NCBI RefSeq assembly: GCF_902652985.1
Contig: NC_047020.1
Coordinates: 28,954,001-29,018,000 of the forward strand
DNA length: 64,000 nt
Direction of reading: 5' to 3'
From: Pecten maximus
Lineage: Eukaryota
A program made the translations under genes and the position numbers. Shown here one piece after another: positions 6,891-59,890 of the stretch (position 1 is the stretch's first letter; every line of letters starts with the position of its first letter). The notes under the pieces were generated by a model. It did no database searches. It saw nothing but the letters and a program-made list of their open reading frames with translations, and was not told the origin of the DNA.

Positions 6891-7520
6891 ATTTGAAATT
6901 TAAAATGAGGTTAGCTGAACCTTGTACACATACACAAGATGTAAAGTTCTGTCAGCAGGTAATGCCACCATTTGTGGTCACCAAATACCCCTGGGTATTC
7001 ACATATCTTAGCAGGTATTGTTAAAAGTAGATAGCTGCAATTTGAAAAAAAATATGGCTTTCAGTTAATTATCTAAATTTTTGGTTGCCATGTAAATGAT
7101 ATATCCTGTCTATGCTATATTCTGGCATGTCTTATGATTGGTTTGTACTATATATACTCTGTGGTAGAACTCTTACAGGTGTATATGTAGGAGTTACCTG
7201 GCAGGTTAATGGAACCACCTACATGCTTCCTTCTAGGTATACAATATAGGTTCACATGGGAGCACATTAGTCTAAGGTAGTCTATGATACCTGTTTAATA
7301 ATGAAAGTAAATTCATACAAACTTTTGAAACTAATATTCACTGTTTTAATACTTATAGATTTTATTTTTGAATTTCAAAGAGGTTTCCAAATAAAATATC
7401 AGAAGGCACAATTTTAAGAACTGCAAAAGATGGTCAATTTATATTATTAGACAAGTTAATATAGATACAGGGTGTTCAGTGTAGAGAAGTCTGTAAACCC
7501 AGGATGGTCATTATGGAGAA

Positions 7521-30654: not shown

Positions 30655-33200
30655 CAGAAGTGTGATAGTCAGTAGGATTAGAGGCTGGGACAGAAGTGTG
30701 ATAGTCAGTGGGATTAGTGGATAGAACAAAAGTGTGATAGTCAGTAGGGTTAGAGGCTGGGACAGAAGTGTGATAGTCAGTAGGGTTAGAGGCTGGGACA
30801 GAAGTGTGATAGTCTGTGGGATTAGTGGATAGAACAGAAGTGTGATAGTCAGTAGGATTAGTGGATAGAACAAAAGTGTGATAGTCAGTAGGATTAGTGG
30901 ATAGAACAAAAGTGTGATAGTTGGTAGGATTAGTGGATAGAACAGAAGTGTGATAGTCAGTAGGATTAGTGGATAGAACAGAAGTGTGATAGTCAGTAGG
31001 ATTAGTGGATAGAACAAAAGTGTGATAGTCAGTAGGATTAGTGGATAGAACAGAAGTGTGATAGTCAGTAGGATTAGTGGATTGAACAGAAGTGTGATTG
31101 TTGGTAGGATTAGTGAATAGAACAAAAGTGTAATAGTCAGTAGGATTAGTGAATAGAACAGAAGTGTGATAGTCAGTAGGATTAGTGAATAGAACAGAAG
31201 TGTGATAGTCAGTAGGATTAGTGGATAGAACAGAAGTGTGATAGTTGGTAGGATTAGTGGATAGAACAGAAGTGTGATAGTAGAATTAGAGGCTGAGACA
31301 GAAGTGTGATAGTCAGTAGAATTAGTGGATAGAACAAAAGTGTGATAGTCAGTAGGATTAGTGGATAGAACAGAAGTGTGATAGTCAGTAGGATTAGTGG
31401 ATAGAACAGAAGTGTGATAGTCAGTAGGATTAGTGGATAGAACAGAAGTGTGATAGTAGAATTAGAGGCTGAGACAGAAGTGTGATAGTCAGTAGGGTTA
31501 GTGGATAGAACAGAAGTGTGATAGTCAGTAGGATTAGTGGATAGAACAGAAGTGTGATAGTCAGTAGGATTAGTGGATAGAACAGAAGTGTGATAGTCAG
31601 TAGGATTAGTGGATAGAACAGAAGTGTGATAGTCAGTAGAATTAGAGGCTGAGACAGAAGTGTGATAGTCAGTAGAATTAGAGGCTGGGACAGAAGTGTG
31701 ATAGTCAGTAGGATTAGAGGCTGGGACCGAAGTGTGATAGTCAGTAGAATTAGAGGCTGGGACCGAAGTGTGATAGTCAGTAGGATTAGTGGATAGAACA
31801 GAAGTGTGATAGTCAGTAGGATTAGTGGATAGAACAGAAGTGTGATAGTCAGTAGGATTAGTGGATAGAACAGAAGTGTGATAGTCAGTAGGATTAGTGG
31901 ATAGAACAGAAGTGTGATAGTCAGTAGGATTAGTGGATAGAACAGAAGTGTGATAGTCAGTAGGATTAGTGGATAGAACAGAAGTGTGATAGTCAGTAGG
32001 ATTAGTGGATAGAACAGAAGTGTGATAGTCAGTAGGATTAGTGGATAGAACAAAAGTGTGATAGTCAGTAGGATTAGTGGATAGAACAGAAGTGTGATAG
32101 TCAGTAGGATTAGTGGATAGAACAGAAGTGTGATTGTTGGTAGGATTAGTGAATAGAACAAAAGTGTAATAGTCAGTAGGATTAGTGAATAGAACAGAAG
32201 TGTGATAGTCAGTAGGATTAGTGAATAGAACAGAAGTGTGATAGTCAGTAGGATTAGTGGATAGAACAGAAGTGTGATAGTCAGTAGGATTAGTGGATAG
32301 AACAGAAGTGTAATAGTCAGTAGGATTAGTGAATAGAACAGAAGTGTGATAGTCAGTAGGATTAGTGAATAGAACAGAAGTGTGATAGTCAGTAGGATTA
32401 GTGAATAGAACAGAAGTGTGATAGTCAGTAGGATTAGTGGATAGAACAGAAGTGTGATAGTCAGTAGGATTAGTGGATAGAACAGAAGTGTGATAGTCAG
32501 TAGGATTAGTGAATAGAACAGAAGTGTGATAGTCAGTAGGATTAGTGGATAGAACAAAAGTGTGATAGTCAGTAGGATTAGTGGATAGAACAGAAGTGTG
32601 ATAGTCAGTAGGATTAGTGCATAGAACAAAAGTGTGATAGTCAGTAGGATTAGTGCATAGAACAGAAGTGTGATAGTCAGTAGGATTAGTGCATAGAACA
32701 GAAGTGTGATAGTCAGTAGAATTAGAGGCTGGGACAGAAGTGTGATAGTCAGTAGGATTAGAGGCTGAGACAGAAGTGTGATAGTAGGGTTAGAGGCTGG
32801 GACAGAGGTGTGATAGTCAGTAGGGTTAGAGGCTGGGACCGAAGTGTGATAGTCAGTAGGATTAGTGAATGGAACAGAAGTGTGATAGTCAGTAGGATTA
32901 GAGGCTGAGACAGAAGTGTGATAGTTGGTAGGATTAGTGGATAGAACAGAAGTGTGATAGTCAGTAGGATTAGTGGATAGAACAGAAGTGTAATAGTCAG
33001 TAGGATTAGTGGATAGAACAGAAGTGTAATAGTCAGTAGGATTAGTGGATAGAACAAAAGTGTGATAGTCAGTAGGATTAGTGGATAGAACAGAAGTGTA
33101 ATAGTCAGTAGGATTAGTGGATAGAACAGAAGTGTAATAGTCAGTAGGATTAGTGGATAGAACAGAAGTGTGATAGTCAGTAGGATTAGTGGATAGAACA
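30655..33200. repeat. 36-bp minisatellite, ~70 copies, two unit variants
   Basis: Unit gaagtgtgatagtcagtaggattagtggatagaaca; variant ...agaggctgggaca. Confidence 0.97.
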
Positions 33201-33277
33201 CAAGTACAATATGTTTAGTATGTAATAATAATGAGTTTTAGTCCAGAGTCTTTTGCAAATATGATTTTGAAATTGGA

Positions 33278-35564
33278 TTTTTAGCCCACCATCATCAGAT
33301 GGTGGGCTATTCAAATCGCCCTGCGTCCGTGGTCCGTCGTCCGTCCGTCCGTCCGTCCGTCCCTCCGTCCGTCCCTCCGTCCCTCCGTCCGTAAACAATT
33401 CTTGTTATCGCTATTTCTCAGAAAGTACTGAAGGGATCTTTCTCAAATTTCATATGTAGGTTCCCCTTGGTGCCTAGTTATGCATATTGCGTTTTGAGAC
33501 CAATCGGAAAACAACATGGCCGACAGGCAGCCATCTTGGATTTTGACAATTGAAGTTTGTTATCGCTATTTCTGAGAAAGTACTGAATGGATCTTTCTCA
33601 AATTTCATATGTAGGTTCCCCTTGGTGCCTAGTTCTGCATATTGCGTTTTGAGACCAATTGGACAACAACATGGCCGACAGGCAGCCATCTTGGATTTTG
33701 ACAATTGAAGTTTGTTATCGCTATTTCTGAGAAAGTACTGAAGGGATCTTTCTCAAATTTCATATGAAGGTTCCCCTTGGTGCCTGGTTATGCATATTGC
33801 GTTTTGAGACCAATCGGATAACAACATGGCCGACAGGCAGCCATCTTGGATTTTGACAATTGAAGTTTGTTATCGCTATTTCTGAGAAAGTACTGAAGGG
33901 ATCTTTCTCAAATTTCATATGTAGGTTCCCCTTGGTGCCTAGTTATTCATACTGCGTTTTGAGACCAATAGGAAAACAACATGGCCGACACAGCAGCCAT
34001 CTTGGATTTTGACAATTGAAGTTTGTTATCGCTATTTCTGAGAAAGCACTAAATGGATCTTTCTCAAATTTCATATGAAGGTTCCCCTTGGTGCCTAGTT
34101 ATGCATATTGCGTTTTGAGACCAATCGGATAACAACATGGCCACCAGGCAGCCATCTTGGATTTTGACAATTGAAGTTTGTTATCGCTATTTCTGAGAAA
34201 GTACTGAAGGGATCTTTCTCAAATTTCATATGTAGGTTCCCCTTGGTGCCTAGTTATGCATATTGCGATTTGAGACCAATCGGAAAACAACATGGCCGAC
34301 AGGCAGCCATCTTGGATTTTGACAATTGAAGTTTGTTATCACTATTTCTGAGAAAGTACTGAATGGATCTTTCTGAAATTTCATATGTAGGTTTCCCTTG
34401 GTGCCTAGTTATGCATATTGCGTTTTTAGACCAATTCGAAAACAACATGGCCGACAGGCAGCCATCTTGGATTTTGACAATTGAAGTTTGTTATCGCTAT
34501 TTATGAGAATGTACTGAATGGATCTTTCTGAAATTTCATATGTAGGTTCCCCTTGGTGCCTAGTTATGCATATTGCGTTTTGAGACCAATTCGAAAACAA
34601 CATGGCCGACAGGCAGCCATCTTGGATTTTGACAATTGAAGTTTGTTATCGCTATTTATGAGAATGTACTGAATGGATCTTTCTGAAATTTCATATGTAG
34701 GTTTCCCTTGGTGCCTAGTTATGCATATTGCGTTTTAGACCAATCTTAAAACAACATGGCCGACAGGCAGCCATCTTGGATTTTGGCAATTTAAGTTTGT
34801 TATCACTATTTCTGAGAAAGTACTGAATGGATCTTTCTGAAATTTCATATGTAGGTTTCCCTTGGTGCCGAGTTATGCATATTGCGTTTTGAGACCAATC
34901 AGAAAACAACATGGCCGACAGGCAGCCATCTTGGATTTTGACAATTGAAGTTTGTTATCGCTATTTCTGAGAAAGTGCTGAATGGATCTTTCTCAAATTT
35001 CATATGTAAGTTTCCCTTGGTGCCTAGTTATGCATATTGCGTTTTGAGACCAATCGGAAAACAACATGGCCAACAGGCAGCTATCTTGGATTTTGACAAT
35101 TGAAGTTTGTTATCGCTATTTCTGAGAAAGTACTGAAGGGATCTTTCTCAAATTTCATAGTGAGGTTCCCCTTGGTGCCTCGTTATGCTTATTGCATTTT
35201 GAGATCAATTGGACAACAATATGGCGGACAGACCGCCATCTTGGATTTTGACAATTGAAGTTTGTTATCTCTATTTCTCAAAGTACTGAATGGATCTTTC
35301 TCAAATTTCATAAGTAGGTTCCCCTTGGTATTGCATTTTTGGACCAGTCTGTCCTGAAAACAACCTGACAAACAAACAGCCATTATCGTTAAATCTCAAA
35401 TTTCTTATATAGCTAGGATTCCCTTGTTTGAAAAGTACTGGAGGGATGTCTCAATTTGCACAGATTAGTAAAATGAAGGGAAAAGTAGAGAAAAGATCAA
35501 TCTGACATGGAACCTATGAAGATCATTCAATGGTGGGCGCCAAGATCCCTCTGGGATCTCTTGT
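33278..35564 (+). mobile_element. Non-autonomous Helentron-type (HINE/pearl-like) element with ~12.5 tandem ~155-bp core repeats
   Basis: T-run start, agcccaccat...atggtgggct hairpin, (GTCC)n microsatellite, ~155-bp array, 3' tggtgggcg subterminal IR and agatccc-tct-gggatct palindrome. Confidence 0.85.
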
Positions 35565-35592
35565 AAATGTGATTGTATGATTTTGTTTCCAG

Positions 35593-35724
35593 GATGTAGC
35601 TAATTCACTACAGGAGAAACTTGGGATCAAGAGTGTCAAGTATTTTAACTTGGTTCTGCAAAACATGAAAAGTCACATACCAGGTCGTCTTACCATTCTA
35701 CAAGACCATGAGACACTTGCAGAG
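35593..35724 (+). CDS. FRMPD4: Exon: FERM F1 (DVANSLQEKLGIKSVKYFNLVLQNMKSHIPGRLTILQDHETLAE)
   Basis: tttccag / GAG|gtaagt; 132 nt. Confidence 0.93.
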
Positions 35725-35772
35725 GTAAGTTCAAGTTAAAGGCTATACATTACCAGTTTATTTCAATAATAG

Positions 35773-35911
35773 CTCACCACCATATAGATAATAGCGTATC
35801 GCCTCCGGCAGCCCATAATTTGCATAACAAAAATGAAAATAAATATCCCGTGAGAGGACCCTTAATGCCCGATACGAACGCACCGCGCATGACCCAAAAC
35901 CTCACTTCCGC
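35773..35911. repeat. DIRS left inverted terminal repeat (139 bp)
   Basis: Reverse complement of 42198-42336 with no mismatch seen by eye. Confidence 0.95.
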
Positions 35912-36348
35912 TTATGGCAGCCATCATCCCAGAAGGATTTTGACGACAGCTCGTTTTCCCAGGGTTTTTGTTGCATTTAATTAGTTTTTCTTTTGCTTTG
36001 CTTTCGTAATTTGTTATTCTCATCTTTGTTGACAAGTTTTTCATTTTCGTTTGAACTGTCAGTCCGTTTGTGTGTCGTATTTCGTCTTTTTTGTCGAGTG
36101 GTTACTGCACACGTGGACTGTCTCGCTACGGTACCGCGGTCTAGTAGACCACTTCGGTGTCTATTTTTCTCGCTTTATTTGCTACCGTTTTGCTTTTGTC
36201 AACTCAGTTGTTTTATTTCTTTTTCATTTTGTACTTTTCTGTACTTATTTCCAGTTGACGGGACGTTTTTCCGTAATTTTATCGGTGGATTTTTCTTCCG
36301 TTTTTTGGCTGGATTTTCTCGTTTGCTGGAAGCTGCCCGCCTAGCAGA

Positions 36349-37449
36349 ATGCGAGGTAAGAGACTTACTTCGGGTCCAAAAACTCGGTCAGGAGACTGCG
36401 GTCATGTCATCCTCGATGGGGATGACCATGACACCTGTTCTACCTGCCGAGGCTGCTCCCGGGACAACATGTGTTCCGTCTGTTTGACATGGTCAAACAC
36501 TTTGTGGGACAGGGTGTTGTCCCATCAGTCTGTCGCCCGTAATAAGGGTGCTAAGTCTGGGGCAGACAGTAAACGTCAACCTAAAGTCCAGTGTGGTGCT
36601 GTTGTCAGCCTCCCACCTGGCAGTGAGGCATTTTTACCCCCTGAAGGGGAAGTAATTTTGTCTCACAGTGGTAGGCACTCTTTGGCTACAGAGGAACCTA
36701 TTCACACACATATTTCTGAGGCGGTAGGGCCTTTGGGTTCTATCGGTCATCAGAAGGGCACTCACCCGGGAATCTCCTTGGAGGTCGAAGGGAGCGAGTG
36801 TCCAGGTACCATCTCCGTTAGCGGAATGGTTACCGAACAGGCCAGTCATGCGACCCGGGCCCCATTGAGGGGTGCCGGCGTACCCACTGACAGTAGGCCG
36901 GCTGGTACTGCCAGTTTTTACGGTGGTTCTGGAGAGGCTGCACTAGGAGCTGGGAGTGTCTCTGTTTCACTCCCAGGCGTTGGTTTACCGTATTTTGAGT
37001 CTGGTTTGGGTTCCGGGGTTATGCACCCGTCGGTTCCTAGGTCTGCCTTGCCTCTATCTGGTCCTCCTCCAGTTAGAGCTCCTGGCTCAGTGGGGTTTAT
37101 GGGTGCTCCAGGGCATCCCCCACCTTATCCCTACCCTCATTCTGCACCCGGGTTAGGTGGTAGTTTGCAGTCTCCTGGCAATTTTGGCCATTTTCAGCCA
37201 TATTGGCCAGGCAGGTCTCCAGTAGGGGGCAATTCATTTCCTGGTCCTGCGGGTGTCGGAATGTTGCCTTCTCCCCAGTATTCTGGCTTCGGCCAACACT
37301 GGGGCCCCTCCCAGTCTATGGGATTTCCATACCCTGGGTATGGTCAAACCTTTCCAGGTTACACTGGTCAACCTTGGGTTTCCTCAGCTGTCTATAATCA
37401 GTCAGGTGTTGAGTTGGGTCCCCCCCCCTTCTCGCTCACGCCTTGTTAA
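36349..37449 (+). CDS. DIRS gag-like ORF1, N-terminal part (Cys/His motif, then G/P-rich region)
   Basis: CGHVILDGDDHDTCSTCRGC...CSVC motif typical of DIRS ORF1; first ATG-initiated long ORF after the left ITR. Confidence 0.8.
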   Translation: MRGKRLTSGPKTRSGDCGHVILDGDDHDTCSTCRGCSRDNMCSVCLTWSNTLWDRVLSHQSVARNKGAKSGADSKRQPKVQCGAVVSLPPGSEAFLPPEGEVILSHSGRHSLATEEPIHTHISEAVGPLGSIGHQKGTHPGISLEVEGSECPGTISVSGMVTEQASHATRAPLRGAGVPTDSRPAGTASFYGGSGEAALGAGSVSVSLPGVGLPYFESGLGSGVMHPSVPRSALPLSGPPPVRAPGSVGFMGAPGHPPPYPYPHSAPGLGGSLQSPGNFGHFQPYWPGRSPVGGNSFPGPAGVGMLPSPQYSGFGQHWGPSQSMGFPYPGYGQTFPGYTGQPWVSSAVYNQSGVELGPPPFSLTPC

Positions 37450-38872
37450 GTCTAAAAGGGTTCACCGTCCCTCGAAGACATTGGCTGAGACTCCCAGGTC
37501 ATCGCTTCCCAGCAGGGTTAAGCGTAAAGTCAACTTCTCTCATCTTAGTGCTGGCCTTTCTTCTGCTTCTAAGTGTAGGAGAATGGAGGCTCCAGACCAG
37601 ACTGTGTCTCGGTCAACCTCCAGTTTTGGCCAGTCTCCTCAAACTGATCTTCAGGAGACTGAGGATATGGATTTTGAGGAGTCCGAGACTGAGGATGTTG
37701 GTCAGCTGACTTTGCCTGATGATGGGGACACTCTGTCGTTGGATGCTGGGTCTGATGTGGATGCCGAGACTCGCTCATGGCTCCCATCAGTACCTACCGA
37801 GGGGTCAGATCATGAGTCTTTTCACTCTGAGGCTGATAACCCCGACTCAGATTTAGGTCTGGCTGCATCTCAGGCAGAGAGGAATCTTGATTCCTTTCGT
37901 AGCCTTCGTTTGGAGGTTGCTTCCCTTTTGGGAGTTGAATTTTGTCCCCCTCCCTCTGCTTCTAGCCTCCCAGAAAGGACTTCAACTTTAAGTGCCTTTC
38001 TTCCCTCGGAGCCAGAAGCTAAGGCATCAGGTAGGTCTTTGGCTGAAGGGACTATGGTCTCTTCAGCATTGGCCCAAATTGAAAAGGTTCTGCAGGCCAA
38101 AGGTTCTTCTAATAGGAAGCAGGATCTTTCTGGTTTGCTTCTGGGGGTTAGCGATATCGAGGGGTTTAGTCCTTCTCGATATTCTGTGCACAATTCCTCA
38201 GTTGAACCTACTCCAGCCAAGGTGGATCTTATCTTAGACCATCGCTGGCCTGGGAGATCAAATGATATTGTTCATTTATCTCCTAAGGAGCATAGTCGCA
38301 TGGAAAGACTGCTTCGTCTTGCCATTCATGTGCTGGCTTATGCAGATTCTTTTTCCTCTGCTTTGTTCGTAGCATCTTCTCATTCTGAGGAGAGCCTACC
38401 TAACAAGACTAAGCTTCTGGCTGAACTCAGCAAGGCCATGAACCGGGCCCACATGGATGGAACCGCGCTCATTTTGGCAGTTCTTGCTGATTTTGTTTTG
38501 GCCCGCCGTGCAGCAGTTCTGAAGCCCAGACTAGCTGTAGGTGAGCCATTCATTTCCGATCTCATGACTGCTCCCTTGTCTGGCTCAGAAATGTTTGGAG
38601 GTATTCTCACCTCTGTCATGGACCGAGTCAACAATGACAAGGCGGCTTCAGCTAGGCTTGAGAAGCTTAGGGCTAAGCCTAAACCTGGCCGGGTGCAGCG
38701 TCCAGGTAAGCCTAAGAGGGGTGCTCAGACAACTCAGTCTCAGACTCAGACTCAGCCTCCTGTAGCTTCGGCTGTTCGAGGTGGGCACTCTTCTCGGGGT
38801 CGGGGCAGTCAGAGTCACAGAGGGGGAAGGGGTGGAAAGAAGAATCCCAGCAAGAAGGGACAGAGTTCCTGA
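37253..38872 (+). CDS. DIRS gag-like ORF1, C-terminal part (probably continuous with the previous ORF across the C9 run at 37420-37428)
   Basis: Acidic segment, helical segment ending LARRAAVL...APLSGSEMFG, basic RG-rich tail; +1 frame relative to the first part. Confidence 0.8.
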   Translation: MSECCLLPSILASANTGAPPSLWDFHTLGMVKPFQVTLVNLGFPQLSIISQVLSWVPPPSRSRLVKSKRVHRPSKTLAETPRSSLPSRVKRKVNFSHLSAGLSSASKCRRMEAPDQTVSRSTSSFGQSPQTDLQETEDMDFEESETEDVGQLTLPDDGDTLSLDAGSDVDAETRSWLPSVPTEGSDHESFHSEADNPDSDLGLAASQAERNLDSFRSLRLEVASLLGVEFCPPPSASSLPERTSTLSAFLPSEPEAKASGRSLAEGTMVSSALAQIEKVLQAKGSSNRKQDLSGLLLGVSDIEGFSPSRYSVHNSSVEPTPAKVDLILDHRWPGRSNDIVHLSPKEHSRMERLLRLAIHVLAYADSFSSALFVASSHSEESLPNKTKLLAELSKAMNRAHMDGTALILAVLADFVLARRAAVLKPRLAVGEPFISDLMTAPLSGSEMFGGILTSVMDRVNNDKAASARLEKLRAKPKPGRVQRPGKPKRGAQTTQSQTQTQPPVASAVRGGHSSRGRGSQSHRGGRGGKKNPSKKGQSS

Positions 38873-41003
38873 CTCTTTCAGGCCCTCGGTTCCTCATTGT
38901 CACTTGTCCTCCCCATTAGACGATCCATGGTCAGGTCTCCAGCTTCCAAAGCCAGATCTGCCCGTCGGGGGTCGTCTATCCTCCTTCCTACCAGAATGGA
39001 AGGAGCTCACCAAGGACAAGTGGGCAATTTCGGTGGTTTCCGAGGGTCTAGGTATTCCTCTCTTGAAGGATCCTCCTCTGTCTGTGGACCCTATCTTCTT
39101 TCCTCCACCAGGCGATGTAGAGAAGGCTCAAGCCCTCTTAGACGAGGTCAATTCCTTGATAGCCAAGGGTGCTGTGGAGGAGCTTCCAAGGTCACTCTGG
39201 ACTCCAGGCTTTTACTCCCGGATGTTTCTTGTCAAGAAGAAATCCGGGGCCTGGCGTCCGATTATAGACCTCAGTGCATTCAACAAGCATGTAGTCTCGC
39301 CACACTTCAAAATGGAGACACCTCGAAGTATCTTGACTTCGGTAGCTCCAGGTATGTGGGCGACCTCAATCGACCTCAAGGACGCTTATTTCCATATACC
39401 GATAAAGAAATCGGTCAGGAAATTCCTGAGATTCACTTCTCAGGGCAGAGTGTTCCAGTTCAAGGCCATGCCCTTCGGTCTGACCACCGCCCCTTTGGTG
39501 TTCACCAAGCTACTTCAGGTGGTTGTGGGCTATTTACACAGTCGCGGAGTAGATATCCATATTTATTTCGACGACTCCCTGATGCTGCATATAGACCCAG
39601 TCTCTCTGCGTTGCAGCACCAGGTCGGTCTTGACAACTCTTCTACGCCTAGGTTTTATCCCTTCACGGGAGAAATCCGAGGTTCTTCCATCCCAGGACTT
39701 CATTTTCCTGGGAAACCGTTTCCTTACGGATCGGGGCCTCGTTCTTCCTCCTCAGTCCAAGTTCCAGAAAGCCAAGGAGTTGGTTATTCTGCTCAACAGT
39801 CTGGACTATATTCAGGTCAGGTGGTTTCTGAGGCTTCTCGGATTCCTCAATTCCCTTTCGGATGTCGTACCCCTGGGTCGGCTCCATATTCGCCCTCTTC
39901 AGATGTTTCTTCTTTCCAAATGGAAACCTGCATCCCTCGAGTGGGATGCTCGGATTCCATTGGAAGCTTCCGTCAAGGCCTCGGCCATGTGGTGGGCTTT
40001 GGAGGCCAATGTTTTGAAGGGCGTCTCTCTTCAGAGAGCGTCCCCTACAGTAACTCTGTATACGGACGCATCTATGACGGGTTGGGGTGCCTACCTCAAC
40101 GGTCAGTGTCGTTCAGGGGTCTGGCAGGGGGCTCAACTCCAGGAACACATCAATGTGCTGGAGATGAGAGCAGTTCTGCTAGCCATTCAGTCCCTACAGC
40201 CTCTGCTGCAGGATCAGTCCATTTGTCTGGCTACAGACAATGCTACAGTGGTAGCTTATTTGGAGAATCAGGGGGGTACAAAGTCTCACAAGCTATGTGC
40301 CCTCACTATCAGGATTCTTCTTCTTTGTCAGGATATGGGTCTGTCCCTCTCAGTGAGGCATCTTCCAGGGCACCTGAATGTTTTAGCAGACACGCTATCC
40401 AGATCACGGAGTCCAGTTATCACAGAATGGACCCTGAACAGGTCTATATTCAGGGCCATCTGCATGGTTTGGGAGACTCCTCTTGTAGATCTGTTTGCCA
40501 CAGCTCTGAATTTCCAGATTCAGACGTTCGTGTCTCCAGTTCCGGATCCTTTGGCTTGGGAAGTAGATGCTCTATCCCTGAGCTGGGAGGGTCTTCTGGC
40601 ATATGCCTTCCCTCCATTCAACCTCCTGGGCAGGGTACTTCACAAGGTCAGGAATCACGATTGCTCGGTTCTCCTGATAGCACCTCTGTGGCCCAGACAG
40701 CCTTGGTTTCCGGCTCTTCTGGATTTGCTGGTAGATCTCCCCTTGGCCATTCCGGCCAGGTGGAATCTCCTCAGCCAGCCCAAATCCAGACAGTTTCACC
40801 CCAATCCGGAACACCTACACCTTCACGCGTGGAGGCTATCTCGGTCTGTCTCTTGCAGGCAGGCTTTTCTGCAGAAGTTACCGATGGCATCACAAGATCT
40901 ATTCGATCTTCCTCATCTGCCATCTATGAGTCCAGATGGTCAGTCTTCTGCAGTTGGTGTATCAGCAGGAAGATTGATCCACTCGGTGCCTCTATTCAGT
41001 TAA
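38781..41003 (+). CDS. DIRS pol: reverse transcriptase, RNase H and DNA adenine methyltransferase-like domain
   Basis: RT: WRPIIDL, SIDLKDAYFHIPI, MPFGL, YFDD. RNase H: TDAS, HINVLE, TDN, ADTLSR. MT-like: DLFA, AFPPF. Confidence 0.97.
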   Translation: MGTLLGVGAVRVTEGEGVERRIPARRDRVPDSFRPSVPHCHLSSPLDDPWSGLQLPKPDLPVGGRLSSFLPEWKELTKDKWAISVVSEGLGIPLLKDPPLSVDPIFFPPPGDVEKAQALLDEVNSLIAKGAVEELPRSLWTPGFYSRMFLVKKKSGAWRPIIDLSAFNKHVVSPHFKMETPRSILTSVAPGMWATSIDLKDAYFHIPIKKSVRKFLRFTSQGRVFQFKAMPFGLTTAPLVFTKLLQVVVGYLHSRGVDIHIYFDDSLMLHIDPVSLRCSTRSVLTTLLRLGFIPSREKSEVLPSQDFIFLGNRFLTDRGLVLPPQSKFQKAKELVILLNSLDYIQVRWFLRLLGFLNSLSDVVPLGRLHIRPLQMFLLSKWKPASLEWDARIPLEASVKASAMWWALEANVLKGVSLQRASPTVTLYTDASMTGWGAYLNGQCRSGVWQGAQLQEHINVLEMRAVLLAIQSLQPLLQDQSICLATDNATVVAYLENQGGTKSHKLCALTIRILLLCQDMGLSLSVRHLPGHLNVLADTLSRSRSPVITEWTLNRSIFRAICMVWETPLVDLFATALNFQIQTFVSPVPDPLAWEVDALSLSWEGLLAYAFPPFNLLGRVLHKVRNHDCSVLLIAPLWPRQPWFPALLDLLVDLPLAIPARWNLLSQPKSRQFHPNPEHLHLHAWRLSRSVSCRQAFLQKLPMASQDLFDLPHLPSMSPDGQSSAVGVSAGRLIHSVPLFS

Positions 41004-41911
41004 TAGCGGAGTTTTTCCTCTACCTTTTTAAGGTTAGGGAACTAGCGCCTAGCACCATTCGAGGCTATCGTTCAGCCTTAGCCAATGTATTTTCTTTTCG
41101 GGGTCGTTCAGATGTTGGAACATGTTCCACTCTCTCTAATCTCCTCAGGTCTTTTTCGTTGGAGAAGCCTAAGGTAAGAATCTTGACACCCCAGTGGGAC
41201 TTGGCTTTAGTTTTGGACTCTCTTACAAGGTCTCCTTATGAGCCTTTGGCTTCTGCTTCTGTTAAGTTCCTTTCTTGGAAGACTGTTTTCCTGATTGCAC
41301 TTGCCTCAGGTAGGCGGAGAAGTGAAATACATGCTCTTTCTTCTTCTCCGTCATGTCTCAGGTGGTCACGAAACTATTCCCTAGTGACCCTTCTCACTGA
41401 CCCCTCCTTCTTGGCGAAAAACCAGGTTCCCAATTTTTCACCAGATCCTATTAAGATTCCTGCCTTAAAGGCTGTCTCTGGTCCCAATGATCAGGATCTG
41501 CTACTTTGTCCTTGTAGGGCTTTGAAGTTTTATCTTGATAAAACTAAGGGGGGGCGGCAGGGTCCTAGACCTCGTCTGTTCTTGTCCATCAAGGCAAAGC
41601 AGTCTGATATATCTTCTCAGACTATTTCCAGGTGGATCTGTGAAACTATTCAGAAAGCCTATGAGGGGTCTACTGCAGAGACTCGTGACAGTGTTCGGGT
41701 TAGGGCACATGAAGTTAGGGCTCTATCTGCCTCTTGGGCTTTTCTCAATGGAACCTCATATGATGAGGTCATGGCATCTGCCTTTTGGCGAGGCCGCAAC
41801 ACCTTTGCAGACTTCTATCTGCGGTCGCTGTCCTCCCATGCAGATGGGTTATATTCTCTGGGTCCTCTTGTCACTGCTCAGTCAGTCACTTGTCCCCCAG
41901 TCAATCCTTAG
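38897..41911 (+). CDS. DIRS tyrosine recombinase ORF, overlapping pol in another frame
   Basis: C-terminal ~350 aa has YR features: LAPSTIRGYRSAL, GRRRSEI (R), LCPCRAL, HEVR (HxxR), W...TF..FY (catalytic Tyr). Confidence 0.95.
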   Translation: MSLVLPIRRSMVRSPASKARSARRGSSILLPTRMEGAHQGQVGNFGGFRGSRYSSLEGSSSVCGPYLLSSTRRCREGSSPLRRGQFLDSQGCCGGASKVTLDSRLLLPDVSCQEEIRGLASDYRPQCIQQACSLATLQNGDTSKYLDFGSSRYVGDLNRPQGRLFPYTDKEIGQEIPEIHFSGQSVPVQGHALRSDHRPFGVHQATSGGCGLFTQSRSRYPYLFRRLPDAAYRPSLSALQHQVGLDNSSTPRFYPFTGEIRGSSIPGLHFPGKPFPYGSGPRSSSSVQVPESQGVGYSAQQSGLYSGQVVSEASRIPQFPFGCRTPGSAPYSPSSDVSSFQMETCIPRVGCSDSIGSFRQGLGHVVGFGGQCFEGRLSSESVPYSNSVYGRIYDGLGCLPQRSVSFRGLAGGSTPGTHQCAGDESSSASHSVPTASAAGSVHLSGYRQCYSGSLFGESGGYKVSQAMCPHYQDSSSLSGYGSVPLSEASSRAPECFSRHAIQITESSYHRMDPEQVYIQGHLHGLGDSSCRSVCHSSEFPDSDVRVSSSGSFGLGSRCSIPELGGSSGICLPSIQPPGQGTSQGQESRLLGSPDSTSVAQTALVSGSSGFAGRSPLGHSGQVESPQPAQIQTVSPQSGTPTPSRVEAISVCLLQAGFSAEVTDGITRSIRSSSSAIYESRWSVFCSWCISRKIDPLGASIQLIAEFFLYLFKVRELAPSTIRGYRSALANVFSFRGRSDVGTCSTLSNLLRSFSLEKPKVRILTPQWDLALVLDSLTRSPYEPLASASVKFLSWKTVFLIALASGRRRSEIHALSSSPSCLRWSRNYSLVTLLTDPSFLAKNQVPNFSPDPIKIPALKAVSGPNDQDLLLCPCRALKFYLDKTKGGRQGPRPRLFLSIKAKQSDISSQTISRWICETIQKAYEGSTAETRDSVRVRAHEVRALSASWAFLNGTSYDEVMASAFWRGRNTFADFYLRSLSSHADGLYSLGPLVTAQSVTCPPVNP

Positions 41912-42052
41912 GGAGGTTCCATTGCGGTTTCTGTTTTTAAAGAGTTTTATTGTAAATATCCCAGACCCTTAAGGGGTTTTTAACTGATGTCTTTGTTGCG
42001 GTCTTTTCAAGAGGTCATTGTCCTCGGAGACTCCTCTACGGTAAGACAAATT

Positions 42053-42147
42053 CGCTATTATCTATATGGTGGTGAGCTATTATTGAAATAAACTTGAGGT
42101 TTTTGTAGTAAAACCAATGTTTATGATATAATACTCACCACCATATA
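42053..42147. other. DIRS internal complementary region (ICR; circle-junction template)
   Basis: 42053-42093 is the reverse complement of the left end 35756-35796; 42094-42147 is the reverse complement of the right end 42323-42376. Confidence 0.95.
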
Positions 42148-42197
42148 CTAGAGTTCCCACCCTCCTCCCCTCGTCTCCTCATCCAATTTATTTGGTT

Positions 42198-42336
42198 GCG
42201 GAAGTGAGGTTTTGGGTCATGCGCGGTGCGTTCGTATCGGGCATTAAGGGTCCTCTCACGGGATATTTATTTTCATTTTTGTTATGCAAATTATGGGCTG
42301 CCGGAGGCGATACGCTATTATCTATATGGTGGTGAG
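42198..42336. repeat. DIRS right inverted terminal repeat (followed by 40-bp right extension to 42376)
   Basis: Reverse complement of 35773-35911. Confidence 0.95.
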
Positions 42337-42515
42337 TATTATATCATAAACATTGGTTTTACTACAAAAACCTCAATTTCATAGCAATCCAAGGTGTAGG
42401 TCAAAGGTAAAAAATTATTATCCAGTGATATAGTCTGCAGGTTTTATAAAGTTTTACATCAAAAGTTTTTATGGTTGCAAATAAAGACAGTCCAGACTGC
42501 AGATTTGTACTTACA

Positions 42516-44738
42516 ACAGTATTGACCTATATTTATATTATCCCTTATCTGTACAGTGTTGACCTATATTAATGTTATCCTTTGTCTGTACAGTGTTGAC
42601 CTATATTTATGTTATCCCTTGTCTGTACAGTGTTGACCTATATTTATGTTACCCCTCGTCTGTACAGTGTTGACCTATATTTATGTTATCCCTTGTCTGT
42701 ACAGTGTTGACCTATATTTATGTTATCCCTTGTCTGTACAGTGTTGACCTATATTTATGTTATCCCTTGTCTGTACAATGTTGACCTATATTTATGTTAC
42801 CCCTCGTCTGTACAGTGTTGACCTATATTTATGTTACCCCATGTCTGCACAGTATTGACCTATATCTATGTTGTCCCTTGTCTGTACAGTATTGACCTAT
42901 ATTTATGTTCTCCCTTGTCTGTACAATGTTAACCTATATCTATGTTACCACTTGTCTGTAAAATGTTGACCTACTATGTTATCCCTTGTCTGTACAGTGT
43001 TGACCTATATTTATGTTATCCCTTGTCTGTACAGTGTTGACCTATATTTATGTTATCCCTTGTCTGTACAGTGTTGACCTATATTTATGTTATCCCTTGT
43101 CTGTACAGTGTTGACCTATATTTATGTTACCCCTTGTCTGTACAGTATTGACCTATATTTATGTCTTCCCTCATCTGTACAGTGTTGACCTATATTTATG
43201 TTCTCCCTTGTCTGTACAGTGTTGACCTATATTTATGTTATCCCATGTATGTACAATGTTGACCTATATTTATGTCACCCCTTATCTGTACAGTGTTGAC
43301 CTATATCTGTTACCCCTTGTCTGTACAGTATTGACCTATGTTTATGTTCTCCCTTGTCTGTACAATGTTAACCTATATATATGTTACCACTTGTCTGTAA
43401 AATGTTGACCTACTATGTTATCCCTTGTCTGTACAGTATTGACCTATATCTATGTTACCCCTTGTCTGTACAGTGTTGATCTATATTTATGTTATCCCTT
43501 GTCTGTACAGTGTTGACCTATATTTATGTTATCCCTTGTCTGTACAGTGTTGACCTATATTTATGTTACCCCTTGTCTGTACAGTATTGACCTATATTTA
43601 TGTCTTCCCTCATCTGTACAGTGTTGACCTATATTTATGTTCTCCCTTGTCTGTACAGTGTTGACCTATATTTATTTTATCCCATGTTTGTACAATGTTG
43701 ACCTATATTTATGTCACCCCTTATCTGTACAGTGTTGACCTATATCTGTTACCCCTTGTCTGTACAGTATTGACCTATGTTTATGTTCTCCCTTGTCTGT
43801 ACAATGTTGACCTATATTTATGTTACCCCTTGTCTGTACAGTGTTGACCTATATCTATGTTACCCCTTGTCTGTACAGTTGACCTATATCTATGTTACCC
43901 TTGTCTGTACAATGTTGACCTATATTTATGTTACCCCATGTCTGTACAGTATTGACCTATATTTATGTTACCCCTTGTCTGTACAGTGTTGACTTATATT
44001 TATGTTATCCCTTGTCTGTACAGTATTGACCTATATCTATGTAACCCCTTGTCTGTACAATGTTGACCTATATCTATGTTACCCCATATCTGTACAGTGT
44101 TGACCTATATTTATGTTATCCCTTGTCTGTACAGTGTTGACCTATATTTATGTTACCCCTTGTCTGTACAGTGTTGACCTATATTTATGTTCTCCCATGT
44201 CTGTACAATGTTGACCTATATTTATGTTCTCCCATGTCTGTACAATGTTGACCTATATTTATGTTCTCCCATGTCTGTACAATGTTGACCTATATTTATG
44301 TTATCCTTTGTCTGTAAAGTGCTGACCTATATTTATGTTACCCCTTGTCTGTACAGTGTTGACCTATATCTGTCACCCCTTGTCTGTACAGTGTTGACCT
44401 ATATCTATGTCACCCCTTGTCTGTACAGTGTTGACCTATATTTATGTTATCCCATGTCTGTACAGTGTTGACCTATATTTATGTTCTCCCTTGTCTGTAA
44501 AGTGTTTGCCTATATCTATGTTACCCCTTGTCTGTACAGTGTTGACCTATATTTATGTTATCCTTTGTCTGTACAATGTTGACCTATATCTATGTTCTCC
44601 CTTGTCTGTACAGTGTTGACCTATATTTATGTTATCCCTTGTCTGTACAGTGTTGACCTATATTTATGTTACCCCTTGTCTGTACAGTGTTTCCCTATAT
44701 TTATGTTCTCCCTTGTCTGTAAAGTGTTTGCCTATATT
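42516..44738. repeat. 37-bp minisatellite, ~60 copies
   Basis: Unit tgtacagtgttgacctatatttatgttatcccttgtc. Confidence 0.97.
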
Positions 44739-45084
44739 TTCTCTTTATTGGTAACACTGAACTCTAAAGGTCTAATTAATTATTTGGAGATATGAGATGT
44801 TATCAGTGAATTTGTTTGGCAGAGAGAGAAAGCCTGAAACCTCTGTCATGTTGTGCTGGTGATCATATTAATCATAGACTCCGCGGGATGTATCATAGCT
44901 GAGGGATCAATCACAAAATTAATCTAGTGAAATAACAATAAATCCTTGTACATAAGAGCGCCACATATCAGATCATTACTCATCAGAACTTTCAACTATC
45001 TGTGTAAACTTGTCCCTCACATAAAAAAAATGTCCCCTGAACGATTTGGATATGGGACAATCTACTGTACATACCCTTTATAAT

Positions 45085-46282
45085 AGTCTGGTGGAATAGA
45101 CAGAAATCCTAACACCATAAACCTACTGTATGTCAGTGTGGTGGAATAGTCAGAAATCCTAACACCATAAACCTACTGTACGTCAGTCTAGTGGAAAGTC
45201 AGAAATCCTAACACCATAAACCTACTGTATGTCAGTCTGGTGGAATAGTCAGAAATCCTAACACCATAAACCTACTGTATGTCAGTCTGGTGGAATAGTC
45301 AGAAATCCTAACACCATAAACCTACTGTACATCAGTCTGGTGGAATAGTCAGAAATCCTAACACCATAAACCTACTGTATGTGAGTCCGGTGGAATAGTC
45401 AGAAATCCTAACATCATAAACCTACTGTATGTCAGTCTGGTGGAAGAGTCAGAAATCCTAACACCATAAACCTACTGTATGTCAGTCTGGTGGAATAGTC
45501 AGAAATCCTAACACCATAAACCTATTGTACGTCAGTCTGGTGGAATAGTCAGAAATCCTAACACCATAAACCTACTGTACGTCAGTCTGGTGGAATAGTC
45601 AGAAATCCTAACACCATAAACCTACTGTACGTCAGTCTGGTGGAATAGTCAGAAATCCTAACACCATAAACCTACTGTATATCAGTCTGGTGGAATAGTC
45701 AGAAATCCTAACACCATAAACCTACTGTTTGTGAGTCTGGTGGAATAGTCAGAAATCCTAACACCATAAACCTACTGTATGTCAGTCTGGTGGAATAGTC
45801 AGAAATCCTAACACCATAAACCTACTTTATGTCAGTCTGGTGGAATAGTCAGAAATCCTAACACCATAAACCTACTGTATGTCAGTCTGGTGGAATAGTC
45901 AGAAATCCTAACACCATAAACCTACTGTATGTCAGTCTGGTGGAATAGTCAGAAATCCTAACACCATAAACCTACTGTACGTCAGTCTGGTGGAATAGTC
46001 AGAAATCCTAACACCATAAACCTACTGTACATCAGTCTGGTGGAATAGTCATAAATCCTAACACCATAAACCTACTGTATGTCAGTCTGGTGGAATAGTC
46101 AGAATCCTAACACCATAAACCTACTGTACATCAGTCTGGTGGAATAGTCAGAAATCCTAACACCATAAACCTACTGTATGTCAGTCTGGTGGAATAGTCA
46201 GAAATCCTAACACCATAAACCTACTGTACGTTAGTCTGGTGGAATAGTCAGAAATCCTAACACCATAAACCTACTGTATGTC
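45085..46282. repeat. 50-bp minisatellite, ~24 copies
   Basis: Unit agaaatcctaacaccataaacctactgtatgtcagtctggtggaatagtc. Confidence 0.97.
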
Positions 46283-47653
46283 ACATCTAATCCTTACCCT
46301 GAATATATACCAATTTTACTATGAGAGCCTTATGCCAACCTGGATCTTGCATTACTCGTAGAATAAGTTTTCATTCTGCCAACATCAAATCACTCCTGGA
46401 TCAATCTGTGATCGGTGATGGAGCCTAAATCTAATTTGCTTGGCCCTTTTGGTTACTTTTTGCTGGCTGTAATCCAATCAACTCACAAATATTATTTCCT
46501 AAATACGTTACAGACGGCAAGGGCATCAGACGGGCAGTTCTAGTCGCCGTGTATCAGTAACGATCAACGTCAGCTATGGACTTTTTATTCATGGGATGCT
46601 GATAAAAAATGAATTTAGCTTTTAGTGGGTGTCATTATGGACATTTCATAGAGATGTTGTGTCATTATTTTACGTTACTAATCCCTACATTTTATATATG
46701 TAATTGGTATTATTTTTTTATTCAATTAGTGTAAAGATATTTTCTTGGTTCCTTAATTAGCTATTTATTCATCAGAGCTCAGTGTCTCAAGAGATATATA
46801 TGTCATAAATGGTTACCTCAGAGTTTAGCTGTCCATTTCTGTTGACTGTATCGATACAGTGGTCAAAGCCTGTCGTATGAGTTATTGTGAAATTTCTCCT
46901 GACTTGTCACTGTTAATTTAGTCTCCACTGTTAATTTAATTGGATATGAAACACTCATGAAATGCTATCTCACAAGAAAAAAGATTTCCAATCGAACATT
47001 AGACATACCTTTGAGTATAGTTTGTAAAATAAGAGTGACACAACATTGTATGGCCATCTATAACTTGTCACTTTTCATTCTGATAGCAACTGATGTTTGA
47101 CGGATATTCTTACATGAATAATGCCATATCACCAAAATCAATGAGGACCACAGGTCAAGGTCACTGTTACCTAAGATAAAACTAGAGTGACATTTATGGC
47201 TTGTACATGTCACTTTTGATTCTGATGATAAATTTATTCGGACGACCAGGTATTGATTGTTATATCATTTTTTTGTGTGAGAGTAACAGTATAAAGTTTT
47301 GTAAGAAAACAACACAATTTTGTGACATATACTCAGGTTGATAAGGACACATCCAAATCCTATAGTCCTAGGAAACATCATGGATTCTGATTGGCAGGGA
47401 CCAATCAGGCTGTTACGTCTGATATGTGGGTCTGGTTTTGCTCCTACTTTGTGGTAAATACTGCTTATCAGATTACATAGAAAAAAACGATTCCTTATTT
47501 CCATTATTACTACAGCGGTACTGAAGGTCTTCTGATGTGGGGCCCCAACCCTGGCGCCGGTCTAGTGTGTATCATTGTGTAAGAAGTATTAAGATTGCAT
47601 TTATTTATTTAGACCAGTGGCACATGACTGAAATTTTCAATATTTTTTAACAG

Positions 47654-57125: not shown

Positions 57126-59890
57126 GGTATTTACTGTAGTGGGGTACAGGGAGGGGTGTGTCACTGTAGTGGGGTACAGGGAGGGGTGTATTACTGTAGT
57201 GGGGTACAGGGAGGGGTGTATTACTGTACTGGGGTACAGGGAGGGATGTATTACTGTAGTGGGGTACAATGAGGAGTGTGTCACTGTAGTGGGGTACAGG
57301 GAGGGGTGTATTACTGTAGTGGGGTACAGGGAGGGGTGTATTACTGTAGTGGGGTACAGGGAGGGGTGTATCACTGTAGTGGGGTACAGGGAGGAGTGTA
57401 TTACTGTAGTGGGGTACAGGGAGGGGTGTATTACTGTAGTGGGGTACAGGGAGGGGTGTGTTACTGTAGTGGGGTACAGGGAGGGGTGTATTACTGTAGT
57501 GGGGTACAGGGAGGGGTGTATTACTGTACTGGGGTACAGGGAGGGGTGTATTACTGTACTGGGGTACAGGGAGGGGTGTATCACTGTAGTGGGGTACAGG
57601 GAGGAGTGTATTACTGTAGTGGGGTACAGGGAGGGGTGTGTCACTGTAGTGGGGTACAGGGAGGGGTGTGTCACTGTAGTGGGGTACAGGGAGGGGTGTG
57701 TCACTGTAGTGGGGTATACGGAGGGGTGTATCACTGTAGTGGGGTACAGGGAGGAGTGTATTACTGTAGTGGGGAATAAGGAGGGGTGTATTACTGTAGT
57801 GGGGTACAGGGAGGGGTGTATCACTGTAGTGGGGTACAGGGAGGGGTGTATCACTGTAGTGGGGTACATGGAGGTGTGTATTACTGTAGTGGGATACAGG
57901 GAGGGGTGTGTCACTGTAGTGGGGTACAGGGAGGGGTGTGTCACTGTAGTGGGGTATACGGAGGGGTGTATCACTGTAGTGGGGTACAGGGAGGGGTGTA
58001 TCACTGTAGTGGGGTAAACAGAGGGGTGTATCACTGTAGTGGGGTACAGGGAGGGGTGTATTACTGTAGTGGGGTACAGGGAGGGGTGTGTTACTGTAGT
58101 GGGGTACAGGGAGGGGTGTATTACTGTAGTGGGGTACAGGGAGGGGTGTATTACTGTACTGGGGTACAGGGAGGGGTGTATTACTGTACTGGGGTACAGG
58201 GAGGGGTGTATTACTGTACTGGGGTACAGGGAGGGGTGTATCACTGTAGTGGGGTACAGGGAGGAGTGTATTACTGTAGTGGGGTACAGGGAGGGGTGTG
58301 TCACTGTAGTGGGGTACAGGGAGGGGTGTGTCACTGTAGTGGGGTACAGGGAGGAGTGTGTCACTGTAGTGGGGTACATGGAGGTGTGTATTACTGTAGT
58401 GGAGTACAGGGAGGGGTGTATCACTGTAGTGGGGTACAGGGAGGGGTGTATTACTGTAGTGGGGTACAGGGAGGGGTGTATTACTAGTGGGGTACAGGGA
58501 GGAGTGTGTCACTGTAGTGGGGTACATGGAGGTGTGTATTACTGTAGTGGGGTACAGGGAGGGGTGTATTACTAGTGGGGTACAGGGAGGGGTGTGTTAC
58601 TGTAGTGGGGTACAGGGAGGGGTGTGTCACTGTAGTGGGGTACAGGGAGGGGTGTATTACTGTATTGGGGTACAGGGAGGGGTGTGTCACTGTAGTGGGG
58701 TACAGGGAGGGGTGTATCACTGTAGTGGGGTACAGGGAGGGGTGTATCACTGTAGTGGGGTACATGGAGGTGTGTGTCACTGTAGTGGGGTACAGGGAGG
58801 GGTGTATTACTGTAGTGGGGTACAGGGAGGGGTGTATTACTGTAGTGGGGTACAGGGAGGGGTGTGTCACTGTAGTGGGGTACAGGGAGGAGTGTGTCAC
58901 TGTAGTGGGGTACAGGGAGGGGTGTATTACTGTAGTGGGGTACAGGGAGGGGTGTGTCACTGTAGTGGGGTACAGGGAGGAGTGTGTCACTGTAGTGGGG
59001 TACAGGGAGGGGTGTATCACTGTAGTGGGGTACAGGGAGGGGTGTATTACTGTAGTGGGGTACAGGGAGGGGTGTATTACTGTAGTGGGGTACAGGGAGG
59101 GGTGTGTCACTGTAGTGGGGTACAGGGAGGGGTGTGTCACTGTAGTGGGGTACAGGGAGGAGTGTGTCACTGTAGTGGGGAATAAGGAGGGGTGTATTAC
59201 TGTAGTGGGGTACAGGGAGGAGTGTGTCACTGTAGTGGGGTACAGGGAGGGGTGTATTACTGTAGTGGGGTACAGGGAGGTGTGTATTACTGTAGTGGGG
59301 TACATGGAGGGGTGTATTACTGTAGTGGGGTACAGGGAGGGGTGTATCACTGTAGTGGGGTACAGGGAGGAGTGTGTCACTGTAGTGGGGTACATGGAGG
59401 TGTGTATTACTGTAGTGGGGTACAGGGAGGGGTGTGTCACTGTAGTGGGGTACAGGGAGGGGTGTATTACTGTAGTGAGGTACAGGGAGGGGTGTATCAC
59501 TGTAGTGGGGAATAAGGAGGGGTGTATTACTGTAGTGGGGTACAGGGAGGAGTGTATTACTGTAGTGGGGTACAGGGAGGGGTGTAACACTGTAGTGGGG
59601 TACAATGAGGTGTGTATTACTGTAGTGGGGTACAAGGAGGGGTGTATTACTGCAGTGGGGTACAGTGATGGGTGTATTACTGTAGTGGGGTACAGGGAGG
59701 GGTGTATTACTGTAGTGGGATACAATGAGGTGTGTATTACTGTAGTGGGGTACAGGGAGGGGTGTATTACTGTAGTGGGGTACAGGGAGGGGTGTATTAC
59801 TGTAGTGGGGTACAGTGAGGGGTGTATTACTGTAGTGGGGTACAGGGAGGGGTGTATCACTGTAGTGGGGAATAAGGAGGTGTGTATCAT
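57126..59890. repeat. 30-bp G-rich minisatellite, ~92 copies
   Basis: Unit gaggggtgtattactgtagtggggtacagg. Confidence 0.97.

Follow-up and report, generated by a model that had tools for sequence, protein, structure and literature searches.

Whether a retrotransposon of the DIRS group enters its target across a short overlap shared with the host, as the published model holds, or by another kind of strand exchange is the question raised by a locus of Pecten maximus. The window analyzed here is the whole 64,000-nt stretch from 28,954,001 to 29,018,000 of contig NC_047020.1 (forward strand; NCBI RefSeq assembly GCF_902652985.1), in whose positions all coordinates are given, and it contains a DIRS1-like retrotransposon that a preliminary description, made from the letters alone, had presented as complete and probably very recent. 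The ends of this element and of its relatives in three young families show that integration proceeds, likely without a required match of the terminal triplet or of a 6-bp core, through a single one-way crossover between positions -1 and +1 (counted to the left and right of the crossover point), and the targets display a loose dyad, AA-N8-TT. The argument draws on the following features.

35756 to 42376, plus strand: DIRS1-like retrotransposon of family A, 6621 bp, with ends common to 33 other both-ended copies that have unrelated flanks
35756 to 35911, plus strand: left terminus, comprising a divergent part (35756-35772) and a conserved inverted terminal repeat (ITR; 35773-35911), and beginning with the element's own GTT
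42198 to 42376, plus strand: right terminus, comprising the conserved ITR (42198-42336), then a divergent part and a right extension that ends in CCTCAA
42050 to 42147, minus strand: internal complementary region (ICR), a copy of the end-to-end junction, which lies between 42093 and 42094
35747 to 35755, plus strand: left half of the target, positions -9 to -1, ACATTACCA, with A at -9 and -7 and C at -8, a partial fit to the consensus
42377 to 42381, plus strand: right half of the target, positions +1 to +5, TTTCA, host-derived according to the empty allele

The two ITR arms (35773-35911 and 42198-42336) are 100% complementary over 139 nt, the length over which the preliminary description had found them identical. 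The ICR matches both ends, as had also been claimed: in reverse complement, it corresponds to the right end (42323-42376), without a mismatch over 54 nt, joined to the left end (35756-35799), with one mismatch in 44 nt. The junction predicted from it, cctcaa joined to GTTtatttc, is found exactly within the ICR as CCTCAA followed directly by GTTTATTTC. All 34 both-ended copies of family A have an intact ICR, and in the folded minus strand of 42040-42376 the right end pairs with the ICR (z -14.5). Direct repeats within the element are limited to one 27-nt pair, between the ICR and the right ITR. Assignment to the PAT or Ngaro retrotransposons with a tyrosine recombinase was rejected, since the terminal repeats are inverted rather than split and direct. 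The ITRs, the ICR, the reverse transcriptase (RT)-RNase H and recombinase regions, the NTT ends and the absence of a target duplication confirm the DIRS assignment of the preliminary description and place the element in the DIRS1-like superfamily.

Family A is young, and the window insertion is both polymorphic and precise. A left-end search gave 105 candidates, of which 40 were scored, all of them 98-100% identical; 38 loci were fetched, 33 of them with both ends within 8 kb, which with the window copy makes 34 of 39. Median pairwise divergence among these 34 copies is 0.53%, bearing out the recent origin proposed for the element, and the window copy lies 0.12% from its nearest neighbor, with 2 private substitutions. 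Contigs of runs X9 and X11 join 35754/5 to 42376/7, skipping exactly 6621 nt, and run X7 has the empty site accompanied by variants of its own close by, the letters after 35755 being TTTCATAG. Therefore, the site is polymorphic, as had been suspected, and the empty allele, TACCA followed by TTTCATAG, shows neither duplication nor loss in three DNA runs (X7, X9, X11) from three studies. The empty site predicted as tacca followed by TTTcatag is thus seen directly, whereas the alternative reading, taccagtttcatag, is excluded by the same contigs. The proposed insertion at ATTT without a duplication holds as to the duplication, but the triplet is TTT, the A lying to the left of the crossover. No empty-site joint was present among the matches listed for run X4, nor a filled allele among those listed for other runs, in which depth sums are not copy numbers, and no haplotig was seen for the window locus in the assembly (1 match of 1 candidate). 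The probe suggested for circle junctions is the reverse complement of the ICR itself and is present in every copy; because the ICR carries its reverse complement in each of them, the probe cannot separate a circle from a genomic copy. No back-joint occurs among the matches listed for assembled contigs, where the circle junction equals the ICR over ~96 nt.

Two further observations concern empty or shortened sites. In three DNA runs, a joint of single-locus depth links 35816 to 42321 with 6504 bases left out; it possibly represents a very short derivative of the two ends. In addition, a small contig with the element (L049, G000:C2155) is matched at 96% identity by an empty site on a chromosome (L228, G000:C12:8745057), and the two are likely haplotypes of one individual.

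For the census of junctions, the search pattern began at +3, and therefore neither the left-end triplet nor the core was selected for; it gave 81 matches (left ends and ICRs), and another 11 places were fetched. Sister families came to light when two related RT proteins were used as queries, the 35 loci fetched comprising 27 copies of family B, 7 of family C and one distant copy. Families B and C (G000 loci L080-L113) are young, with copies ~99% alike within each family and an RT ~70% identical to that of family A for the query used; their right ends are CCTCAA, as in family A, and their junction triplet is TTT, against GTT in family A. We read 76 left ends (44 in family A, 32 in B and C) and 74 right ends (42, 25 and 7 in A, B and C, respectively). 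The element's triplet opens 75 of the 76 left ends (GTT in 43 of 44 in family A), and right ends keep the core, as CCTCAA in 73 cases and as CCTGAA in one old copy. The target triplet, by comparison, equals that of the element in 22 of 74 (15/42 for GTT in A, 6/25 and 1/7 for TTT in B and C) and differs in 52. Among the 64 both-ended copies, 44 are informative as to polarity, and in all 44 the element's triplet stands on the left and the target's on the right; the other 20 consist of 19 uninformative copies and L061, whose left end starts with AGTT and, given its tandem-repeat context, is best read as having lost one T. Not a single left flank ends in the donor core CCTCAA (0/44 in family A and 0/32 in B and C; 0/76). 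The register of the junctions was checked on predicted empty sites, 19 of 64 of which have spanning matches in the fetched DNA: 15, all for copies inside repeats, are in register with no gap at the joint, and the remaining four are two self-matches, one gapped satellite match and L061. In the genome search of predicted empty sites, 3 of 3 were exact, each with the target ATT against a donor GTT or TTT. Integration across a shared xTT overlap, as the preliminary description had it, does not agree with these counts. Two other placements of the crossover were rejected: an integron-like one between G and TT, since +1 of the right junction varies and the sister families start with T, and a Flp-like 8-bp overlap, which would place the element's +1 on the right.

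The bases preferred in the targets lie on both sides of the crossover. T occupies +2 in 71 and +3 in 63 of 74 targets, +4 is mostly T or A and +5 a purine; in the left flank, A is found at -9 in 52, at -8 in 59 and at -7 in 42 of 76. The pair AA at -9,-8 is present in 43 of 76, that is, in 23/44 for family A, where it was first seen, and in 20/32 for families B and C, which serve as an independent test; its frequency at other offsets, the control used, is ~9-10%. The best dyad axis, scored without a shuffle control, falls between -4 and -3, with mirror pairs -8/+2, -9/+3 and -10/+4; positions -9 to -7 are AAA in the junctions of the elements themselves. Target and donor cores share on average 1.6-2.0 of 6 bases, the expectation being 1.5. 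The TTT families show no excess of T at +1 (p 0.42). Compensation between the arms is a trend at most, AA accompanying an imperfect TT in 9/12 targets versus 28/52. Among more distant relatives, 99 loci were fetched, of which 10 have a defined left end; four right ends coincide with contig ends, and two are ambiguous. By eye, AA at -9,-8 is present in 4/5 further junctions with only a right end, drawn from other distant families and from L114, a distant fourth family with one right end, AAA-GGGTGT, a target GTT and a left end outside the fetched stretch. The literature searched contained neither a two-armed DIRS target nor single-strand integration (the reviews of Goodwin, Poulter and Butler and the supplements were outside its coverage), and the parts at hand of PMC9210276, PMC5633606, PMC13465315, PMC6681497, PMC4381057 and PMC9345347 give no DIRS target consensus; the novelty of both proposals is provisional.

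The reading that we favor, with a probability of about 0.55, is that a folded minus-strand cDNA serves as the donor for a Cre-like recombinase, which would make one strand exchange at a loose AA-N8-TT site and leave completion to the host. Two recombinase monomers would bind the AA and TT arms of the target; the cuts, placed one base inside each arm on the pattern of loxP, would enclose a 6-bp core from -6 to -1. The loxP site has an 8-bp spacer, is cut after base 14 of each strand and contains a 6-bp crossover region that needs homology (bioRxiv 10.1101/2021.08.13.456142); laid on AA-N8-TT, this geometry would place the plus-strand cut at -7/-6 and the minus-strand cut at -1/+1. Of these two predicted cuts, just the one at -1/+1 is ever seen in the junctions, and because the Cre-like cut positions put it on the minus strand, we assign the crossover to the cDNA strand. 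The partner cut at -7/-6 would be unused, or its product not inherited. In the donor, a minus-strand cDNA, both ends would be paired side by side on the ICR, which would take the passive role in a folded attachment site and, if cut, would split the element; after the one exchange, host replication or repair would complete the insertion. A single exchange is favored because two exchanges over a mismatched overlap of 3 or 6 bases should leave both outcomes, whereas the counts are 44:0 and 0/76. Published descriptions include relevant precedents. The cDNA of DIRS-1 is single-stranded, antisense and mostly linear, its ICR is indispensable once the first strand has been made, and amplification of the DIRS-1 circle junction by polymerase chain reaction (PCR) failed (PMC7192593); one exchange followed by replication has been shown for integron cassettes (PMC3458562) and is described for CTXphi (PMC3442271). 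Table 3 of PMC3266345 lists unlike start and end triplets, from which the accompanying section draws no mechanism; by our own count, this table has 8 elements whose ends differ and whose junction is of 3 bases, and in 7 of them the junction matches the start.

Several observations weigh against this reading. In the same table of PMC3266345, AcasDIRS1 matches the junction at its end, not at its start. In the GTT family, +1 is G more often than in the TTT families (18/42 versus 5/32, p 0.02), which may be a remnant of pairing, and 20/44 targets of family A share C at -3 with the donor core. The preference is loose, 33 of 76 targets, that of the window included, having no AA at -9,-8, and the AA-N8-TT spacing may not be general: in the distant relatives' own junctions, judged by eye, AA stands at -9,-8 in 5 of the 10 with a defined left end, three of which are alike. 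Families A-C share the core and are ~70-76% alike and, hence, not fully independent. The cuts have been placed by analogy with Cre, to which the recombinase is 14% identical. More generally, the evidence is a genomic footprint, to which cut sites, strand and substrate have been fitted, and the same footprint would be left by a double-stranded circle with one exchange or by two exchanges with strand-biased repair.

The former of these possibilities, a double-stranded circle that acts on the same dyad with a homology-free core, exchanges the minus strand only and has its immobile junction resolved by a host fork or a junction-cutting nuclease, fits all junction counts. DIRS-1 cDNA is partly circular, and its rapid conversion to double-stranded circles has been proposed (PMC7192593); moreover, bacterial SE elements offer an example of strand-biased exchange on duplex DNA (PMC9345347). 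However, a duplex gives no reason why the cDNA strand should always be the one exchanged, whereas a folded single strand supplies one, and neither a double-stranded DIRS-1 circle nor a PCR product of its junction is reported as found in PMC7192593; we regard this route as rather unlikely. Exchange of both strands in the manner of Tn916/Tn1549, over a melted and mismatched 6-bp core with the heteroduplexes repaired or segregated under a strong one-strand bias, can draw on the structural demonstration of homology-independent exchange across a melted core in Tn1549 (PMC6900584) and on the Tn1549 integrase being a weaker fold match of the recombinase (E 3e-4). It would require a total and unexplained bias, the donor core being present in 0/76 left flanks, and core-exchanged copies should be visible and, with the ICR rebuilding the ends, presumably viable, all of which makes it improbable. 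The published model, in which the ICR templates a circle that is made double-stranded and both strands are exchanged across an identical 3-base overlap (PMC3266345, PMC7192593), would account for the TT at +2,+3 of most targets (71 and 63 of 74) and for the enrichment of G at +1 where the donor has G. Yet the triplet is identical in just 22/74 targets, family C favors C at +3 (5/7) although its donor has T, AA at -9,-8 is left unexplained, and random resolution of a mismatched overlap predicts both polarities, so that the strict identical-triplet form is already contradicted by the ratio of 44 to 0; we consider this model very improbable.

The coding part of the element comprises three open reading frames (ORFs), the layout of which bears on how the recombinase would be made.

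36349 to 38872, plus strand: ORF1, putatively gag-like, with a Cys/His-rich N-terminus; split in the window copy into 36349-37449 and 37226-38872
38870 to 38872, plus strand: ORF1 stop codon TGA in the context TCC TGA C; the recombinase ORF comes next in the same frame, with the RT ORF in +1
38766 to 41003, plus strand: ORF for RT, RNase H and an adenine-methylase-like region, 745 codons from stop to stop
38873 to 41911, plus strand: tyrosine-recombinase ORF, 1012 codons, with the recombinase domain at ~40838-41908 and the first 2.1 kb overlapping the RT ORF

The element is complete in structure, as had been stated, but not in coding capacity: in the window copy as assembled, the frame of ORF1 changes at a run of C (37420-37428). 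Of the 34 both-ended copies, 15 have a continuous ORF1 and 6 retain every one of the three ORFs at full length. The C run varies from 7 to 26 bases among copies, often breaking the frame, and shorter variants are also present in public contigs; it is either a mutation hot spot or partly an assembly error. ORF1 has no match in Pfam, and the label gag is one that we assume from its position. The RT ORF matches RVT_1 above the cut-off (E 1.7e-20), with RNase H matches of E 1e-4 to 4e-4 that fall under the curated cut-offs, as do the integrase SAM-like matches of the element. All the RT, RNase H and recombinase motifs described earlier as intact were located in open frames, together with methylase-like ones (DLKDAY; YFDD; YTDAS, NVLEM, ATDN and ADTLSR; VDLFA and FPPF; R-K-HxxR-W-Y), the catalytic and methylase-like labels being those that we take to apply. 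The presumed methylase-like motifs DLFA and FPPF lie at 40485-40619, where Pfam gives no methylase match. The RT ORF has 1268 homologues, the best named relatives being from scallops (87%). DIRS RT and recombinase proteins also appear in entries for bacterial metagenome-assembled genomes, where their contigs have the size of an element (L195-L213, P0042, P0060, P0072, P0140); 12 of the 19 genome_contigs loci share one isolate title, and these entries are likely contamination from animal hosts.

In the recombinase, R160, K194, H291, R294, W317 and Y327 are invariant or nearly so among 58 homologues. A single-protein search against PDB sequences gave no match, whereas a profile search found Cre (E 7e-6), and the predicted structure (pLDDT 90.3) has Cre as its best fold match (TM ~0.70, E 5.7e-10, 14% identity), with the Tn1549 integrase and the integron integrase (E 4e-4) as weaker ones. 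By profile and modeled fold, Cre is the closest solved relative.

The layout with a single stop, in which ORF1 and the recombinase share one frame and RT lies in +1 (38867-38875 in the window), recurs in families B and C and in 58 of the 99 distant loci (L115-L213). The ORF1 stop is TAG or TGA and never TAA (0/55 loci, which are not independent), whereas TAA ends 20 of 52 readable recombinase ORFs and 10 of 55 RT ORFs. The recombinase ORF has no conserved start, its first Met lying anywhere from codon 15 to 542. Because of these two features, the layout suggests that the recombinase may be made by stop readthrough. The UCC-UGA shift, which we take to be of the antizyme type, was rejected as a general rule, TCC preceding the stop in families A, B and C but in just 8/60 distant loci, and no spliced joint near a possible acceptor at 38881 was seen in RNA-type contigs. 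The base after the ORF1 stop is mostly G or C, a leaky type of context (PMC3542737). Taken together with the junctions, a combined scenario can be tentatively drawn, to which we give slightly less than an even chance: the first-strand cDNA of DIRS elements, its ends folded on the ICR as a loxP-like site, would be swapped without homology into AA-N8-TT-like sites and fixed by replication, the so-called 3-base circular junction would be one binding arm, and one leaky ORF1 stop would meter termination, +1 RT and readthrough recombinase.

The host gene at the insertion site was identified from one exon.

35593 to 35724, plus strand: host exon of a FERM and PDZ domain protein 4-like (FRMPD4-like) protein, with a PDB match of E 0.0024, on the same strand as the element

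This exon is spliced on both sides in the RNA-type runs X15 and X19, the latter on record as RNA and the former presumed to be, and the element sits 31 bases into the intron that follows. The insertion can serve as a presence/absence marker within an intron of a gene that is expressed. Contigs of the element occur in the same two runs, which attests to presence in the libraries, not to transcription. A 155-bp satellite at 33402-35565, with a very high-copy tail (35475-35565), stops just before the exon, and one copy each of family B (L088) and family C (L108) is inserted in other copies of this satellite. Long minisatellite arrays with units of 30-50 bp occupy introns around the element (7476-9517, 30655-33205, 42516-44739, 45085-46283, 57131-59887).

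Thinking about DIRS integration has so far reportedly rested on a model of 1985. Three young families in one genome provide enough precise junctions to reject a strict identical-triplet overlap, and the junctions point to a consensus for the target, to the place of the cut and to its strand. If the favored reading is true, single-strand recombination in the style of integrons and CTXphi would take place in animals, and the ICR would not only template the repair of the ends but also form one strand of the attachment site. A recombinase able to insert 6.6 kb seamlessly at loosely defined sites, needing neither homology nor a double-strand break, would also be of interest as a tool.

With the DIRS1-like elements of PMC3266345 (SkoDIRS2, GaDIRS1 and TnDIRS1a among them, with GTT ends), the window element shares the three ORFs, the arrangement of RT, RNase H and a putative methylase, the recombinase, divergent and conserved ITR parts, the right extension, the ICR, NTT ends and the absence of a target duplication. 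It is longer, 6621 bp against a maximum of 6283 among the 28 elements of Table 3 in that paper, and has a long overlap of the RT and recombinase ORFs that none of the five molluscan elements described there displays. What the same source calls the end triplet is here host DNA that need not match, and the part of the paper at hand does not mention a second arm at -9,-8. DIRS-1 of Dictyostelium discoideum, the recombinase specificity of which has been called uninvestigated, is alike in architecture, with an ICR complementary to both ends, but is clustered at centromeres (PMC7192593), whereas the window family is dispersed in introns and repeats. Cre/loxP is the nearest solved fold, and its 8-bp spacer and 6-bp core would apply to the window family; unlike loxP, however, the arms would be reduced to two or three preferred bases, with no core homology and one inherited exchange. 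The AT-rich, loose targets and homology-free core of Tn916/Tn1549 recur here, but those elements bring a core from the previous site and join both strands, whereas in the window family the ICR determines the core, which remains on one side. Integron attC x attI recombination and CTXphi, in which a folded single-stranded donor undergoes one exchange followed by replication, would be parallels in mode of action, demonstrated there and proposed here. The window family differs in being a eukaryotic retroelement, the integron integrase is a much weaker fold match of its recombinase, and its folded site would be fully base-paired with the ICR instead of forming a hairpin that has extrahelical bases. 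The junction counts would fit an inheritance of one donor strand of the integron/IMEX type.

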